Virus record (IMG/VR): IMGVR_UViG_3300043468_001158
Reading direction: 5' to 3' (one strand)
DNA: 64,000 nucleotides
Origin: a virus
Taxonomy: Duplodnaviria > Caudoviricetes
A program made the translations under genes and the position numbers. The notes under the pieces are model-generated. The model saw nothing but the letters and a program-made list of their open reading frames with translations, was not told where the DNA came from and made no database searches. Positions 47,579 through 55,200 of the stretch are shown here, one piece after another; the first letter of the stretch is position 1; each line of letters begins with the position of its first letter.

Positions 47579-47896
47579 ATGATTACTATTGAAACTTACA
47601 AAGTCTTTCATCCTGGCATTCGACTCTATTCTAAAGGCGGAACTTATTGTCAATCATTATCTCCATGTCATTGGGGTAAGAAAGGTAAGACCTGGTCTTC
47701 TCAAGGTGCTCTTAGACGACATCTTTTCCAGTACTGTTCTGAAAATGGTTATGCTACTCAGGTTAGCATTCCAAAAGAATGGGAGGTTCATGCCATTACG
47801 ACCAATCCAACCACTGGAGTTTTAGAACTTGCAGTCTATAATGCAAGAAAGTTCTATCTCAAAACACATTTACAAACAGATGAAACTGTAGTATAA
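47579..47896 (+). CDS. Hypothetical protein
   Basis: Likely start MITIETYK. Confidence 0.6.
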   Translation: MITIETYKVFHPGIRLYSKGGTYCQSLSPCHWGKKGKTWSSQGALRRHLFQYCSENGYATQVSIPKEWEVHAITTNPTTGVLELAVYNARKFYLKTHLQTDETVV

Positions 47897-47897
47897 T
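47869..47897 (+). promoter_or_regulatory. sigma70-type early promoter for telA
   Basis: TTTACA-N17-TATAAT. Confidence 0.7.
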
Positions 47898-47930: not shown

Positions 47931-49208
47931 ATGGCCGCTTCTCCTTTTACCCCTAAACAAGCAACGTCAGATTTTGTTCAACAACAGATGAAAGATAATC
48001 AGTTCGTAATCAATAAACCACAAACACCAACAACTCCTGTAGTCAAGACATTTGCTCCAGTGACAGCACCAACGGTGCCAATATCTAATGTGCAACAAGC
48101 ATTCAATCCAGTGTCTCCAAAAGCAATTGCAGAAACGGGTGCTTCATCACATCGAGTAGTCAATTTGCTTTCAACGTTTGACAGTTCAACAGGTATCTTG
48201 GATTTTGGTAAAGATGTCATGGCGACTATTTCTTCTAAGTCTGACGAAATGCTCAAAGAAGTCAAAGATGCTGATGTTGATTTTGTCGAAACCCAAATGC
48301 GAAGCATTTTGACAATGGCCAAATCTTTACATCTTCCAAAAGCTGGTGACCATTCAAAAGATGGTGCCGGCGGTTGGCTGACTGGTTTAGTTGCAAAAGT
48401 CAAAGAAAACTTCGTTGATACTAAAGAGCAATTGTTATCTGAATTCAACAATGTATCGACCCAAATGGACCGAGTGATTGGTGAAGTCGATCAAGCAAAC
48501 CGTCGTATCATTGACAAAGTCAAAGGTTTGCAGACGATGTATCAATCAAACTTGCAAGACTACAAGAACCTGGACCAATTGATAAAGGATGCTACTGAAG
48601 CATACAATATCAAAGTCGCTGAATATGACAAGTTGCAAGCTCAAGTGACTGATGCTCTTCAAGCTCAAACTTTACAACGTATGGGTAGTAATCTTGACAG
48701 GTTAGACAAGAAGATTGCTAACATGAAAAGCTTTCAATTGATGTGCTTGCAAGATGCTCCTAATCTGGCTCAAATGGAAGACAATGCGGTTACGTTGCTT
48801 GAAAAGTTTGATACCATCAAGACAATGACTATCCCACTTTGGAAGAAGCAGATTAGGATGTTTATCGACGGGCAAGAACTCAATCGTGCGGCAAAGCTTG
48901 CATCTGCTGTTGATGATGCAAACAATGCTATGATTTCTGCGAACTCGACTGCTAACAAGCAGAATGCAATCGAAACTACTCGATTGAATCAACGTGGCAT
49001 TGTCGATATGCAGACTGCAGAACAGGTTCATGAGAACTTACTTGCTACACTAGAAGAAGTCTCTAACATCAATGCAGCTGGCCGTAAGCAACGTATCGAA
49101 AGTTCTGACCGTATGGATGAAATGAAACGACTGTATGCGTCTATTGCATCAGGTCAAACATCTGTATCGGATGCACGTGGGAAAGTGTTACCGTCTTCAC
49201 AAAACTAA
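47931..49208 (+). CDS. telA: Toxic anion resistance protein (TelA/KlaA family)
   Basis: DFGKD...SDEML; coiled coil; TIPLWKKQ; EIQ/ANN-type C-terminus with L...LEEV..I...GRKQR. Confidence 0.8.
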   Translation: MAASPFTPKQATSDFVQQQMKDNQFVINKPQTPTTPVVKTFAPVTAPTVPISNVQQAFNPVSPKAIAETGASSHRVVNLLSTFDSSTGILDFGKDVMATISSKSDEMLKEVKDADVDFVETQMRSILTMAKSLHLPKAGDHSKDGAGGWLTGLVAKVKENFVDTKEQLLSEFNNVSTQMDRVIGEVDQANRRIIDKVKGLQTMYQSNLQDYKNLDQLIKDATEAYNIKVAEYDKLQAQVTDALQAQTLQRMGSNLDRLDKKIANMKSFQLMCLQDAPNLAQMEDNAVTLLEKFDTIKTMTIPLWKKQIRMFIDGQELNRAAKLASAVDDANNAMISANSTANKQNAIETTRLNQRGIVDMQTAEQVHENLLATLEEVSNINAAGRKQRIESSDRMDEMKRLYASIASGQTSVSDARGKVLPSSQN

Positions 49209-49246: not shown

Positions 49247-49606
49247 ATGAAAGTCAAACTATCAGGTAAGCAATACAAAGAATTCATGAAGGACAATGTC
49301 TTTTGGCCAGAAGGTTTATGGGTTGAAGAAGACATTCTTTCGGTTGATGATGAACCTGTTAGAGAAATTGATGAAGAGGATCTTAGCGATAGTGCAATCA
49401 TAACTATTGAAGATGGCTTTTTGAACTGTGATGATAATGCATCAGATAAAGCAAAAGCATGGCAGTTCAAATCATATCAACCGTTTATCAAGAAATGGTT
49501 ACAACAACAAACAAATCAAACACTGGTGATAGATGTTCCCAAGGAACAATACGATGAAGTTCTAACATATCTAAAAACTCATAAATGCAAAATCATACTA
49601 AAATAG
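49247..49606 (+). CDS. Acidic hypothetical protein
   Basis: First ORF after the promoter. Confidence 0.65.
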   Translation: MKVKLSGKQYKEFMKDNVFWPEGLWVEEDILSVDDEPVREIDEEDLSDSAIITIEDGFLNCDDNASDKAKAWQFKSYQPFIKKWLQQQTNQTLVIDVPKEQYDEVLTYLKTHKCKIILK

Positions 49607-50580
49607 AAGACATGCTTGAACAGTCATTTTGGGATTTTGATGCAGCACGCAAAGGTTATGGCGATTGGAAGAATCGTCCTCAATCAGAACGAGATGCATT
49701 CAAACAAATTGTTCGACAATTTGTCAAATTGGAATCACAATTTTCAGAAGTTGTTCTTGCTCCACCAGAACCACCACCTTGTCGTATCTTACGAGAAGGG
49801 TGTATTGATACTTGCCAAATATGTGGAAGTTCTATCAAGCATAATTGGTATGGGAAGAAGTTAGGTTGTATTCAACCTCAATGCAGTAATTTTATAAACA
49901 TAAGGTATAAACATATGGCTATTGATATAAACAAACGTGTTGCATCTGTCGGCATTGTTCTTGAAAAACGCAAGATGAACAACATTCCGTGTCAAGTCAA
50001 ACTTTGCATTGACAAATCTGGTTCAATGCAAAACTTGTATAACGATGGCACGGTACAAGATGTGGTTGAACGAGTTCTTGCGATTTCACTCAAAGTTGAC
50101 CAAGACGGAACTGTTGATGTATTTGCATTCCACAACAAAACTCAAGCTGTCAAAGCGGTGACACTTCCTTTGATGGAAAACTATGTCAAAAAAGAAATCG
50201 AAGACAAGATGGGTTGGGGTGGTACTTCTTATGCACCGGCCTTTGAAGCAATCGTCAATTCTTCTAAAGGTAAGAAAGGTTTGTTCGGCTTTGGTGCTAA
50301 ACCTGCTGATCCTACTCTGGCTATCTTCATTACTGATGGCGAAAATGATGATGCTCGTGAAGCTGAAAAAGTCATCAAAGATTCACAATCTGAAAACATC
50401 TATTGGTTGTTGATGGGTATTGGTAGTGCAAACTTTAGGTTCATCGAACAACTCGGCGACAAATATCCCAATGCTGGTTTTGTTCCAGTCAATGACATCA
50501 GTGCTATTGATGATGACGATTTATTTGAAGCGATGTTGAATGAAGAACTTGCAACATGGTTTCAAAAATTCAAAAAATAA
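49585..50580 (+). CDS. Ter-associated vWA domain protein (the vWA part starts at the ATG at 49915)
   Basis: MIDAS DKSGS...GGTSY...FITDGE; N-terminal 110 aa look unrelated. Confidence 0.85.
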   Translation: MQNHTKIEDMLEQSFWDFDAARKGYGDWKNRPQSERDAFKQIVRQFVKLESQFSEVVLAPPEPPPCRILREGCIDTCQICGSSIKHNWYGKKLGCIQPQCSNFINIRYKHMAIDINKRVASVGIVLEKRKMNNIPCQVKLCIDKSGSMQNLYNDGTVQDVVERVLAISLKVDQDGTVDVFAFHNKTQAVKAVTLPLMENYVKKEIEDKMGWGGTSYAPAFEAIVNSSKGKKGLFGFGAKPADPTLAIFITDGENDDAREAEKVIKDSQSENIYWLLMGIGSANFRFIEQLGDKYPNAGFVPVNDISAIDDDDLFEAMLNEELATWFQKFKK

Positions 50581-50877: not shown

Positions 50878-51912
50878 ATGTTGAAATATTTTACGAGTTC
50901 GTTTTGGGTTGCTGGAATCGGTTTAGGTCTGGCTTTTTGGATTGGTGGCGTTCAAGCTCTTTGGATTGCTACAGTTCTATCAGTTCTTGAAGTAAGTTTG
51001 AGTTTTGATAACGCGGTTGTCAATGCTCAGGTGCTTAAGGATATGGATGCAGTATGGCGACATCGCTTCATTACGTGGGGTATGGCTATTGCAGTATTTG
51101 GTATGCGAATGCTCTTCCCACTTATCATTGTATCGATTGCATTAGGTATCAATCCAATAGCATCTTTCTTGTTAGCAGTAGCTGAACCTGAACAATATGC
51201 TCATGCTCTCGAATCAGTGCATACATCGGTCATGGGTTTTGGTGGAACATTCCTCATGATGGTCGCCTTCAAGTTCTTTATTGACGATGAAAAAGAAGTT
51301 CATTGGTTACGTCAAGTAGAATCAAAGCTGACTTTTCTTGGAAAGATTGAAGCTGTACAAGCTGCAATGACATTAGTCTTAGTATTCTTTACTTCTAAAA
51401 TCATTGGGTACTTACACGGTTCTGAAGATGAATTGTCATTCTTAATAGCAAGTATTTGGGGCTTAGTGACTTACATTTTGGTTGATGGTATTGAAGCATT
51501 CATTGGCGTTGAAGAAGGTGATGCAACTATGGCAGTTGCAAAATCTGGGTTAGCAAGCTTCTTATATCTTGAAGTGTTAGATGCTAGCTTCTCATTTGAT
51601 GGTGTTCTTGGTGCTCTTGCTTTATCTAACAACATCTTTATCATTATGATTGGTTTAGGTATTGGTGCTATGTTTGTCCGAAGCTTGACATTGCTAATGG
51701 TTGATAAAGGTACAGTTGATCAGTATCGTTATTTGGAACACGGTGCCTTCTGGGCAATCTTAGGATTGGCGGTCATTATGTTCATCAATACTGTATTCGA
51801 AATCCCTGAAACAATCACTGGTTTGATAGGTGCTGCGTTTATTGGTGCTTCAATTCTATCTTCAGTCAAACACAACAAATCTGCAATTGGCGGAATAGTT
51901 ACTAATGGTTAA
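50878..51912 (+). CDS. DUF475 / TerC-like integral membrane protein
   Basis: LEVSLSFDNAVVNA, YLEVLDASFSFDGV, YLEHGAFWAI. Confidence 0.9.
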   Translation: MLKYFTSSFWVAGIGLGLAFWIGGVQALWIATVLSVLEVSLSFDNAVVNAQVLKDMDAVWRHRFITWGMAIAVFGMRMLFPLIIVSIALGINPIASFLLAVAEPEQYAHALESVHTSVMGFGGTFLMMVAFKFFIDDEKEVHWLRQVESKLTFLGKIEAVQAAMTLVLVFFTSKIIGYLHGSEDELSFLIASIWGLVTYILVDGIEAFIGVEEGDATMAVAKSGLASFLYLEVLDASFSFDGVLGALALSNNIFIIMIGLGIGAMFVRSLTLLMVDKGTVDQYRYLEHGAFWAILGLAVIMFINTVFEIPETITGLIGAAFIGASILSSVKHNKSAIGGIVTNG

Positions 51913-52327
51913 ACTAACAGGAAGAATCTTAATCGCTGATGAAGTCAATAGTAATCAGCGAATTTATCCAAAATCAGTTCTTGAAAAGATAGTTGAAGAG
52001 TGTAAAGATAAACCAATGCTTGGCCAGCTTGGAATGCCATATTGGCCAAAGACTTCAGTTGATTTAGATAGAGCAGCATTCAAATGTGAAAACTTTAGAA
52101 TGGACGGAAATGAATTGAAATGCGATATTGAATCACTTGATACTTTTCATGGTAAATTGTTTGAAGATATGGCTCAAAAAATACCGTTAGCATATTCAAG
52201 TATTGGTGTTGCAACAACTTCAACTGATGGTATTGTTGGTGATGATTTTCGTCTAACGGGAATAGCTGCAATTTCAGAACCTGATTGGTCTTTTTCAAAA
52301 ATAGGTAAAAACAATGACAACAAGTAA
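51905..52327 (+). CDS. Degenerate T4 gp21-like prohead protease paralogue
   Basis: ADEVNSNQRIYPKSVLEK...LGQLGMP...AYSSIG...FRLTGIAAISEP aligns with gp21 (from memory) but lacks the catalytic His and Asp. Confidence 0.7.
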   Translation: MVKLTGRILIADEVNSNQRIYPKSVLEKIVEECKDKPMLGQLGMPYWPKTSVDLDRAAFKCENFRMDGNELKCDIESLDTFHGKLFEDMAQKIPLAYSSIGVATTSTDGIVGDDFRLTGIAAISEPDWSFSKIGKNNDNK

Positions 52328-52880
52328 AAATGTAATTTCGCTCGAAAAGAAACAAACAGTCAATCTAACTAAAGCATCTGACTATCTTTCAAAAGTAAAG
52401 GTTAGGATGTCATGGGTCACCCCTACTAATGTCTTCCCTAAGTATGACTTAGATATCTCAGCCTTTCTATTGGGTGCTGATGGTAAGCTTTTATCTGAAG
52501 AAGGTTTCGTCTTCTTCAATCAAGAAGCTACACCAGACCGTTCAGTGTGGAAAACTGAAGATGAACTGTCAGGCGGTTTCGAAGAGCTTTATATCGACAT
52601 CAAAAAGCTTTCTGAAGCGGTCAAAGAAATTAGCTTGGTATCAACCATTCATAAAGCTGAACCCCGCAAGCAATCATTTGATCAGGTCAAAGATGCAAAG
52701 TTGGAAATCTTTGACCAAAATGATCAACCAATTGCGTTGTTCAACCTTGACACCTTAGCTCCTGGTTCTTGGGCAATTCAAGTCGGTTCTTTCTATCAAA
52801 CTGATGAAGGCTTTACTTTCCAAGGTATAGGTCAAGGTTTTCAGCTGGAACTTGTAGCATTTTTTGAAGGCTACAAGTAA
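52314..52880 (+). CDS. terD: TerD-family protein
   Basis: YDLDISAFLLGADGK...FVFFN...EELYIDI...SFDQVKDA...FQGIGQG. Confidence 0.85.
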   Translation: MTTSKNVISLEKKQTVNLTKASDYLSKVKVRMSWVTPTNVFPKYDLDISAFLLGADGKLLSEEGFVFFNQEATPDRSVWKTEDELSGGFEELYIDIKKLSEAVKEISLVSTIHKAEPRKQSFDQVKDAKLEIFDQNDQPIALFNLDTLAPGSWAIQVGSFYQTDEGFTFQGIGQGFQLELVAFFEGYK

Positions 52881-53047
52881 GTCTAACTTGGCACAATGAC
52901 AAAAGTTTAGAGTATAATATAACTTCAATGAAACATTGTTCTAACTATACTGAATAATAAACACGGTGACCGTTATGTAATACTCTAATTGATTTTTCGT
53001 ACAAAACATAAAATTTTGATAAAACATAAAAACGAGGAAATACTCAT

Positions 53048-53614
53048 ATGGCTATAAATCTGAACAAATCTGAAGGCAGTTCAATCAATTTGACCAAATC
53101 TGCTCCAGCTCTAAAAAACATTACGGTTCATTTGTGGTGGAATGGCAACGTCAATCCAATTGACCTGGATGTATCTGCTTTCATTTTGACCAATACTCCA
53201 AATGGCCCTAAGCTGATTGGCGATGAATACTTGGTCTTCTTCAACAATGAAACACCGGCTCATGGCATTGCATGGAAAACCAAAGACGAACGTGGTAGTG
53301 GTGTTGAAGAACTCTACATCAATATCGATAAGTTGGCTGCTCAAGCCAATGCTGATGAAGTGTCGATTGTCGTAACAATCGACAAAGCTAAAGAACGTGG
53401 CCATACTTTTGGTCAAATTACTGAAGCTGGTATTAAAATCCTGAATGCTGATACAGGTGAAGAAATTGCATTCTATGACCTTGACGAACAAGGTGCTGGT
53501 GCTACTGCTTGCCAAGTCGGTTCATTCTTCAAACAAAATGGTGAATTTACTTTCGCTGGTGTTGGTGCTATGTTTGACATCGGTTTGGGTGAATTTGTCG
53601 GTGGCTATAGCTAA
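53048..53614 (+). CDS. terD: TerD-family protein
   Basis: MAINLNK...INLTK, DLDVSAFIL, VFFNN, TFGQI, FYDL. Confidence 0.85.
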   Translation: MAINLNKSEGSSINLTKSAPALKNITVHLWWNGNVNPIDLDVSAFILTNTPNGPKLIGDEYLVFFNNETPAHGIAWKTKDERGSGVEELYINIDKLAAQANADEVSIVVTIDKAKERGHTFGQITEAGIKILNADTGEEIAFYDLDEQGAGATACQVGSFFKQNGEFTFAGVGAMFDIGLGEFVGGYS

Positions 53615-53660: not shown

Positions 53661-53684
53661 AAGGATGGATGAAAGTCCATCCTT
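53661..53684 (+). terminator. Rho-independent terminator
   Basis: aaggatggat-GAAA-gtccatcctt, followed by a T-rich tail. Confidence 0.7.
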
Positions 53685-54420: not shown

Positions 54421-55200
54421 ATGGTCTATAAAAAGAACTTCGCTCTTGCGATAAAAGCACACGGCAAAATCCTACGTGAAAGTGGAGAACAAGTCTTCCT
54501 ACCTTATGGTTGCGAATACTCTATCGTTCTCAAAAATCTACATTCCAAAAAAGCTTCTGTCAAGGTTTGGATTGATGGACAGTTAGTCACTGAAGGCTGT
54601 TCGCTAATCATCAAACCAAATGAATCTATTGACTTAGAACGATTCATTAGAAATGGTAATCTTACTTCAGTTGGCAATCGATTCAAGTTCATTGAAAGAA
54701 CTGAATCAATTGAAAATCATCGCGGCATTAAGATTGATGATGGTCTTGTTCGAATTGAATACCAGTTCGAAAGACAAGTGCAGCCAATTCCGACACCAAT
54801 GATGCAACCAACTTATCGTCATTATCCACCTGTTTGGACATCAACTGTTCGTGGAATGGTACCAGGTCAATCAATTGGTGATGAAGGATTTTTTGGTGGC
54901 CAAGTATCAGAAATTTTAGCTTGTAACGCTCACTCGTCAGTAGCATCGGTATCAAATGTCGGTATCACTGTTGAAGGTAGTATCTCTGACCAAGCATTTG
55001 AAACCTGTCTGCCACTTTGGTTAGAAGATGAAGTTCATGCAATGACACTTCAGCTAGTTGGAGAAGTAGCACAAAGTGGGGTAAGAGTTGAAAAGCCTAT
55101 CACCGTAAAAGCTAAACCGACTTGCAAGACTTGTGGAAAGTTGAATAAAGCTACATCAAAGTTTTGTAGTAATTGTGGAACTTCTCTTCAAATTGTATAA
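54421..55200 (+). CDS. Conserved jumbo-phage protein with C-terminal Zn ribbon
   Basis: GKILRE...LPYGCEYSIVLKN...WIDG...RFKFIER; CKTCG...FCSNCG; AAGGAG RBS supports the ATG at 54421. Confidence 0.8.
   Translation: MVYKKNFALAIKAHGKILRESGEQVFLPYGCEYSIVLKNLHSKKASVKVWIDGQLVTEGCSLIIKPNESIDLERFIRNGNLTSVGNRFKFIERTESIENHRGIKIDDGLVRIEYQFERQVQPIPTPMMQPTYRHYPPVWTSTVRGMVPGQSIGDEGFFGGQVSEILACNAHSSVASVSNVGITVEGSISDQAFETCLPLWLEDEVHAMTLQLVGEVAQSGVRVEKPITVKAKPTCKTCGKLNKATSKFCSNCGTSLQIV

Follow-up and report, generated by a model that had tools for sequence, protein, structure and literature searches.

The DNA analysed here, a 64-kb window (IMG/VR record IMGVR_UViG_3300043468_001158), belongs to an uncultured lake-water T4-like phage, and its large open reading frames (ORFs) match DNA helicase, both topoisomerase II subunits and RNA ligase 1. 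Within its block of tellurite-resistance-type (Ter) genes (Table 1) lies an ORF of 140 amino acids (aa), 51905..52327, which overlaps the stop of the DUF475 gene by 8 nucleotides (nt) and the start of the first of two TerD genes by 14 nt. Both overlaps had been described in an original prediction made from the letters of the window, which proposed in addition that the ORF encodes a catalytically dead copy of gp21, the prohead protease of T4. We find that the ORF encodes a genuine protein of the gp21/S77 fold that is under purifying selection. The protein is predicted to have lost the ability to cut, and we call it the pseudo-protease.

Table 1. Coordinates of the pseudo-protease gene, its catalytic-site codons and the surrounding features in the window
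Feature	Coordinates	Strand	Evidence or remark
Triad-less gp21/S77-fold pseudo-protease, 140 aa	51905..52327	+	Pfam, PHROG, PDB, hhalign, AlphaFold2, omega; equivalent to T4 gp21 residues ~40-183
Met44 codon, position of catalytic His85	52034..52036	+	Met in 5/5 clade lineages; alignments
Ser98 codon, position of nucleophile Ser140	52196..52198	+	Pro in 2/5 closest lineages; Arg/Val in sisters
Ala121 codon, position of Asp168	52265..52267	+	All 69 true proteases from IMG/VR have Asp168
Near-zero-synonymous stretch	51925..52003	+	8-bp inverted repeat 51933-51940 / 51954-51961
TelA-family protein, first gene of the Ter block	47931..49208	+	PF05816 3.5e-49
vWA-TerF-like protein	49585..50580	+	PF10138 6e-42
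DUF475/TerC-family membrane protein	50878..51912	+	PF04332 7.5e-102; stop overlaps pseudo-protease start (ATGGTTAA)
TerD-domain protein 1	52314..52880	+	PF02342 4e-41; start 14 nt inside pseudo-protease gene
TerD-domain protein 2	53048..53614	+	PF02342 5e-37
Sigma-70-like promoter match, 11/12, just upstream of TelA	47869..47897	+	Consensus match only
Terminator-like hairpin after TerD2	53661..53684	+	Consensus match only

Identity and catalytic positions of the 140-aa protein

The profile comparison that the original prediction had called for bore out the relationship to gp21. Peptidase_S77 (PF03420) was the sole Pfam match of the 140-aa protein (E = 1.3e-7; 31.8 bits, curated cut-off 27), with none of the described Ter protein families matching, and PHROG 207, head maturation protease, matched at 2e-13. 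The crystal chain of T4 gp21 (5jbl) was found by phmmer with E = 1.6e-6, and a profile of the window clade aligned by hhalign with 16 true proteases at a probability of 99.8% (E = 6.7e-28). The sequence blocks that the original prediction matched to T4 gp21 are present in the real T4 sequence. When the protein was searched by tblastn against 50,697 phage records, only annotated gp21 genes were found, at 32–35% identity and at one place per record. Megablast of the region gave no match among cultured phages, the protein (P0001) used as a lone query found no relative in IMG/VR, and tblastn and hmmsearch found no second S77-like gene within the window.

An AlphaFold2 model built on 131 relatives had a mean predicted local distance difference test score of 95.4. 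Its top match in the PDB was T4 gp21 (5jbl; Foldseek template-modelling (TM) score 0.73, E = 3e-8), on which it superposed over 124 residues (gp21 residues 37-173) with a VIA Z of 14.9 and a root-mean-square deviation of 1.7 Å; herpesvirus proteases were the next-best structural matches, with Z of 7–8.5. The protein shares with T4 gp21 this fold, 28–35% identity, and motifs outside the triad (N-x-N-x-R-x-Y-P and D-F-x-L). In contrast, it has Met, an unconserved Ser and Ala in place of the His/Ser/Asp triad, and about 40 N-terminal and about 30 C-terminal residues of gp21 have no counterpart in it. The missing N-terminal part is the pro-segment, which in T4 gp21 blocks the active site. The genes also differ in their surroundings: that of T4 gp21 lies between the portal/core and scaffold genes, whereas the pseudo-protease gene lies in the Ter operon among early-type genes.

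The triad cited for these proteases is His/Ser/Asp (Thomas et al. 2017, PMC5694885), and gp21 of the T4 record carries H85, S140 and D168 at the expected places. By hhalign these positions correspond to M44, S98 and A121 of the 140-aa protein, with S99 at S141, and two MAFFT alignments concur. The replacement of His by Met and of Asp by Ala, as originally predicted, stands; it is seen in the whole clade, so that no homologue there keeps the triad, and in sister lineages the His85 equivalent is Ser or Tyr. The accompanying statement that the Ser alone is kept holds for the window sequence but not for its clade and relatives, in which the equivalent of Ser98 is Pro (P0003, P0005), Arg (P0008, P0010) or Val (P0009). 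The nucleophile position, too, does not appear to be under constraint. Across the Ter-linked clade there is no invariant His, Ser or Cys, and the residue equivalent to S141 is Ser or Thr in the whole family. Most of the positions outside the triad that true proteases conserve are retained (D48, N51, N53, R55, Y57, P86, D160, F161 and L163 in T4 numbering), and the shared motifs are D-x-x-N-x-N-x-R-x-Y-P, a P after the His position, and D-D-F-x-L. On these alignments, the 140-aa protein is a pseudo-enzyme that should no longer be able to cut.

A phmmer alignment to 5jbl, which with a shift of one residue places Ala96 at the nucleophile, was rejected in favour of hhalign and MAFFT. The 5jbl chain is the H85A/S140A form, and its Ala at both catalytic positions biases that alignment. 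H85A/S140A gp21 has been used as the catalytically dead control (bioRxiv 10.64898/2026.03.04.709575).

Selection on the gene and the wider family

The reading frame is intact in eight contigs from five lineages, down to 66% identity, and the proteins of four clusters are of equal length and 66–91% identical to that of the window; within the clade, 74 of the 140 positions are invariant. The maximum-likelihood ratio of nonsynonymous to synonymous rates (omega; GY+F3X4) was 0.26 for the pseudo-protease gene, compared with 0.03–0.10 for four neighbouring genes (DUF475, TerD1, TerD2 and the small ORF that comes next). A model with omega fixed at 1 was rejected (log-likelihood -1314.2 free versus -1340.9 fixed; twice the difference, 53). 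The Nei-Gojobori estimate (NG86) of dN/dS gave 0.35–0.65 for the pseudo-protease and 0.06–0.23 for its neighbours in the same genome pairs; we quote both and rely on the maximum-likelihood values, which take codon frequencies into account, over the higher NG86 values. The pseudo-protease gene is under purifying selection and is not decaying, which answers the question of neutral decay raised with the original prediction, and its protein changes 3–8 times faster than those of the neighbouring genes.

An exhaustive protein search over 1.84 billion representatives (E ≤ 1e-3) returned 498 matching representative proteins, and most of the best 150 are 120–140 aa long. An alignment of 155 sequences to T4 gp21 showed H/S/D in the triad columns of 21, all of them longer true proteases, and M/R/N in 43; the remainder carried assorted non-catalytic residues. 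The protein is too short for a well-resolved tree; in the one obtained, the window clade (support 99) is nested among short triad-less proteins, with P0008, P0010 and P0009 nearest, while the true H/S/D proteases group together and apart from it. The short triad-less members match only S77 and PHROG 207 in Pfam and PHROG, and the longer members carry no extra Pfam domain as a fusion. Seven IMG/VR contigs (L019-L024 and L058) have the M/R/N type amid replication genes rather than head genes, in a module ordered UvsX, UvsY-like, helicase, S77-like, a 169-aa protein of unknown type, lysozyme-like, and ribonucleotide reductase (NrdA/NrdB). From these alignments and gene neighbourhoods, the pseudo-protease belongs to a large, largely undescribed family of triad-less gp21 cores of 120–150 aa, found in uncultured T4-like and giant phages and encoded outside head modules. 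It is thus not simply a paralogue of the phage's own gp21, as had been supposed, since it is nested in a large and old triad-less family.

Several features of this family were seen in passing. The 169-aa protein (phrog_11279) always lies directly downstream of the M/R/N S77-like gene, and by this position it may be a partner of the S77-like protein. The M/R/N alignment (A4) has an invariant Ser-His pair in V-S-H-x-V-x-N-L-R, which is common to many cyanophage-type true proteases (the His being at T4 position 98) and is found neither in T4 gp21 nor in the window clade, where A-F stands. A complete 595-kb uncultured phage, LR756511.1, encodes both an H/S/S/D protease (L013) and an M/R/S/D copy (L012). 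The latter (L012:5884-6777) is a protein of 297 aa whose triad-less S77 core is accompanied by a twin-arginine-like hydrophobic leader and by a C-terminal extension without a Pfam match.

Diverged protease paralogues have been described in giant phages: SPN3US gp117, 201phi2-1 gp206 (145 aa) and PhiPA3 gp143 (136 aa) (Thomas et al. 2017, PMC5694885). Like the pseudo-protease, these are short stand-alone cores with an incomplete triad, without the C-terminal part, and encoded apart from the real protease gene; the window protein, with 140 aa, M/S/A at the triad and a place in the Ter operon with no head genes beside it, fits this short-core type. They differ from it in belonging to phiKZ-like phages with S80-type proteases, and gp117 keeps the Ser and Asp, whereas in the window protein, which comes from a T4-like phage, His and Asp are the residues lost. 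The window protein's own sequence family, at more than 40% identity, comes from metagenomes only. Among its best structural matches in BFVD are short proteins of cultured jumbo phages, for example one of 144 aa from Yersinia phage fHe-Yen9-04 (TM 0.81). Since 2017, dead copies of the head protease have thus been on record for a few giant phages, their function being left open in that study. What is added here is a large, selected family of dead copies in uncultured T4-like phages, encoded among early or replication genes, with one branch wired into a phage Ter operon that offers TerD and DUF475 as candidate partners.

The Ter operon and the proposed role of the pseudo-protease

The Ter association is the new element of the finding; no Ter adjacency was reported for the giant-phage paralogues (PMC5694885). 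The window shares the order DUF475, S77-like, TerD, TerD with seven other loci (L002, L003, L005-L007, L009 and L010), and in all close homologues the start of the S77-like gene overlaps the stop of DUF475. The more distant P0008 (42% identical) directly follows, with a 4-nt overlap, a TerD gene whose product is 86% identical to TerD1 of the window. For P0010 (38% identical) the order is vWA ... DUF475, TerD, S77-like, with a 23-nt overlap with TerD. Across three divergent lineages (38–42% identical) and two gene orders, therefore, the TerD neighbour is kept and the upstream gene is always overlapped, a pattern expected of functional linkage. Judged by this gene arrangement, the pseudo-protease gene appears to be an integral, translationally coupled member of the phage Ter operon in the sub-branch of the window.

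Iyer et al. 2021 (PMC7824862) described abbreviated Ter operons, made up of TelA, vWA-TerF, TerC/DUF475 and TerD, in T4-like and jumbo phages. The gene order of the window, TelA, vWA, DUF475, TerD, recurs in Rhizobium phage RHph_Y65 and Ralstonia phage RsoM2USA. Their operons lack an S77-like gene, whereas the window and two other lineages have an overlapping pseudo-protease gene beside TerD.

Metatranscriptome contigs 100% identical to the window cover the pseudo-protease gene in four runs from two studies. In two runs of one sample, contig depth was 42–51 over 44.0–54.7 kb and 1–6 over 54.9–58.4 kb, and it rose after 58.7 kb; in the second study, contigs span 50.1–54.2 kb, with almost nothing past 54.2 kb. 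DNA carry-over would give an even depth, and the Ter block is therefore likely transcribed. This evidence consists of assembled contigs, from which strand, transcript ends and timing cannot be read. Promoter-like and terminator-like matches are no more numerous in the region than in shuffled sequence, and only the positions of the best sites (Table 1) are suggestive. The sequence TATAAATA was not found between 47.9 and 55.1 kb. Early or middle expression of the Ter operon is plausible.

We favour a reading, to which we assign a probability of about one half, in which the pseudo-protease is a non-catalytic binding subunit working with the phage Ter module. The protein would probably still bind a peptide or a protein without cutting it, because it keeps the non-triad motifs of true proteases, as is typical of substrate-binding pseudo-enzymes. 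Its most likely partner would be a Ter protein (TerD or the membrane protein of the DUF475 family) or else some ligand passed on to these proteins, and the pseudo-protease would act as an accessory binding subunit of the module. For the phage Ter module itself, Iyer et al. 2021 (PMC7824862) propose a part in the competition between a phage and those that superinfect its host. A complex prediction for TerD1 and the pseudo-protease scored 0.00, which we take as no verdict and use neither way.

Several observations weigh against a role as Ter subunit. By hmmsearch, no S77-like gene is present in the cultured Ter clusters of RHph_Y65, RsoM2USA and MT838707 (TelA-vWA-DUF475-TerD), so the Ter module does not need the pseudo-protease. 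A scan of IMG/VR (alignment A5) found Ter homologues absent at 76 further loci of the family; because Ter genes are missing next to most members of the wider family, the basic activity of the family is not Ter-specific. The placement in the Ter operon may reflect an insertion that was tolerated and passed down among related phages. TerD is 54–86% identical among the three Ter-linked lineages, which may be fairly close relatives, and this weakens their independence. The Ter proteins are candidate partners, proposed from gene arrangement, and the retention of a peptide-binding groove is deduced from sequence motifs. Finally, with omega at 3–8 times the neighbouring values, the gene looks no less like that of a conflict protein evolving fast than like that of a housekeeping subunit.

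Such a conflict could involve the CBASS defence (cyclic-oligonucleotide-based antiphage signalling system). That the prohead protease triggers CBASS, a premise of the original prediction, has been published (bioRxiv 10.1101/2023.05.21.541620 and 10.64898/2026.03.04.709575). The CD-NTases (cGAS/DncV-like nucleotidyltransferases) of CBASS are switched on when the prohead protease cuts a surface loop, and H85A/S140A gp21 fails to activate them (bioRxiv 10.64898/2026.03.04.709575). CBASS escape mutations map to prohead proteases. The proposal that the dead copy titrates the sensor as a ligand decoy is thereby ruled out, as CBASS senses cleavage and dead gp21 does not activate it; a dead copy could at most shield the CD-NTase loop. 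Because prohead-protease activity was reported in 2026 as a signal for many CBASS systems, a look-alike that is conserved, probably early and unable to cut is an obvious candidate for a counter-measure. The dead core would bind the (I/L)xE-type loop of CD-NTases, or other sensors of protease activity, and so keep gp21 from triggering CBASS late in infection. We regard this as unlikely, even though it agrees with activation by loop cleavage rather than by dead gp21, with the escape mutations, with the retained non-catalytic motifs, with the fast protein change expected of a conflict role, with a probably early operon that is likely transcribed in nature, and with a family widespread in phages expected to carry the real protease too. 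A stoichiometric blocker must out-compete an enzyme, known anti-CBASS proteins are not similar, and the coupling to TerD and DUF475 in three lineages is left unexplained.

An equally doubtful alternative places the pseudo-protease in head assembly, as a regulator or chaperone that binds gp21 in a dominant-negative manner, or binds the (I/L)xE-ended capsid-targeting leaders of cargo proteins, and blocks processing before proheads have formed. T4 gp21 is oligomeric, a pentamer in the crystal (PMC9958956), the pseudo-protease keeps its core but neither of its terminal segments, and head assembly is the context in which Thomas et al. 2017 treat the giant-phage paralogues (PMC5694885). Neither in the window nor in the wider family, however, is the gene in or near the head module; the operon has no late promoter motif, and this alternative, too, does not explain the Ter adjacency.

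We give no better odds to a broader proposal, in which the protein is a peptide-recognition module, able to grip protease substrates of the (I/L)xE type, and is used in conflict. It would shield the activation loops of host CD-NTases from the phage's own gp21 or, as part of the Ter membrane module, act on superinfecting T4-like phages by recognising or poisoning either their head-maturation machinery or proteins that they inject. If this were true, CD-NTase shielding would make it a new class of anti-CBASS protein. Should the CBASS idea fail, the link to Ter would still be a rare handle on the function of the phage Ter module.

That the ORF is a functionless relic, a decaying protease fragment still open by chance, is very improbable: the lost triad, the raised omega and the Ter clusters of cultured phages that lack the gene would fit it, but not a frame open in five lineages, the rejection of omega = 1, the invariance of more than half of the positions in the clade, the confident fold prediction or the hundreds of related clusters of the same length. 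We give just as little credence to continued protease activity through Ser98 or Ser99 and a non-canonical base, for although the window sequence has Ser98, and the family a Ser or Thr at the S141 equivalent, the clade has Met and Ala at the other two triad positions, relatives replace Ser98 by Pro, Arg or Val, the Ter-linked clade offers no invariant His, Cys or Lys as a candidate, and in T4 the loss of H85 and S140 yields a dead enzyme.

A conserved stretch in the gene and other observations at the locus

Codons 8–33 of the pseudo-protease gene have identical nucleotides in four lineages and three base differences in the fifth. Synonymous differences amount to 0–1 per 16 sites in this stretch, compared with a proportion of 0.22–0.49 in the rest of the gene and 0.33–0.56 in the neighbouring genes, for which synonymous divergence between lineages is 0.4–1.0. 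The sequence of the stretch is not repeated elsewhere in the compared loci, and RNA structure found no support there (z-score -0.68, zero compensatory pairs). An operator, an RNA element and a recombination linker are candidate explanations. Dual coding was considered as the cause of the low synonymous rate and rejected, as none of the alternative frames stays open across the homologues.

Between the two TerD genes, a spacer of 167 nt (52881-53047) cannot be aligned with the closest relatives. At the same place, after TerD1, one relative has a second S77-like gene, of type P0008 (L017:553-939), which suggests gain or loss of a gene there. The two TerD paralogues (52314-53614) diverge unequally in the same genome pairs, with dN of 0.04–0.09 for TerD1 and 0.23 for TerD2.

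Downstream of the Ter block, the RNA contigs of both studies stop near 54.2–54.7 kb, and depth drops at least 10-fold over the region of a gene for a 954-aa AAA+ protein. TATAAATA occurs at 55196, in this region of low depth. There are hints here of a boundary between differently timed transcription units near 54.2–58.7 kb.

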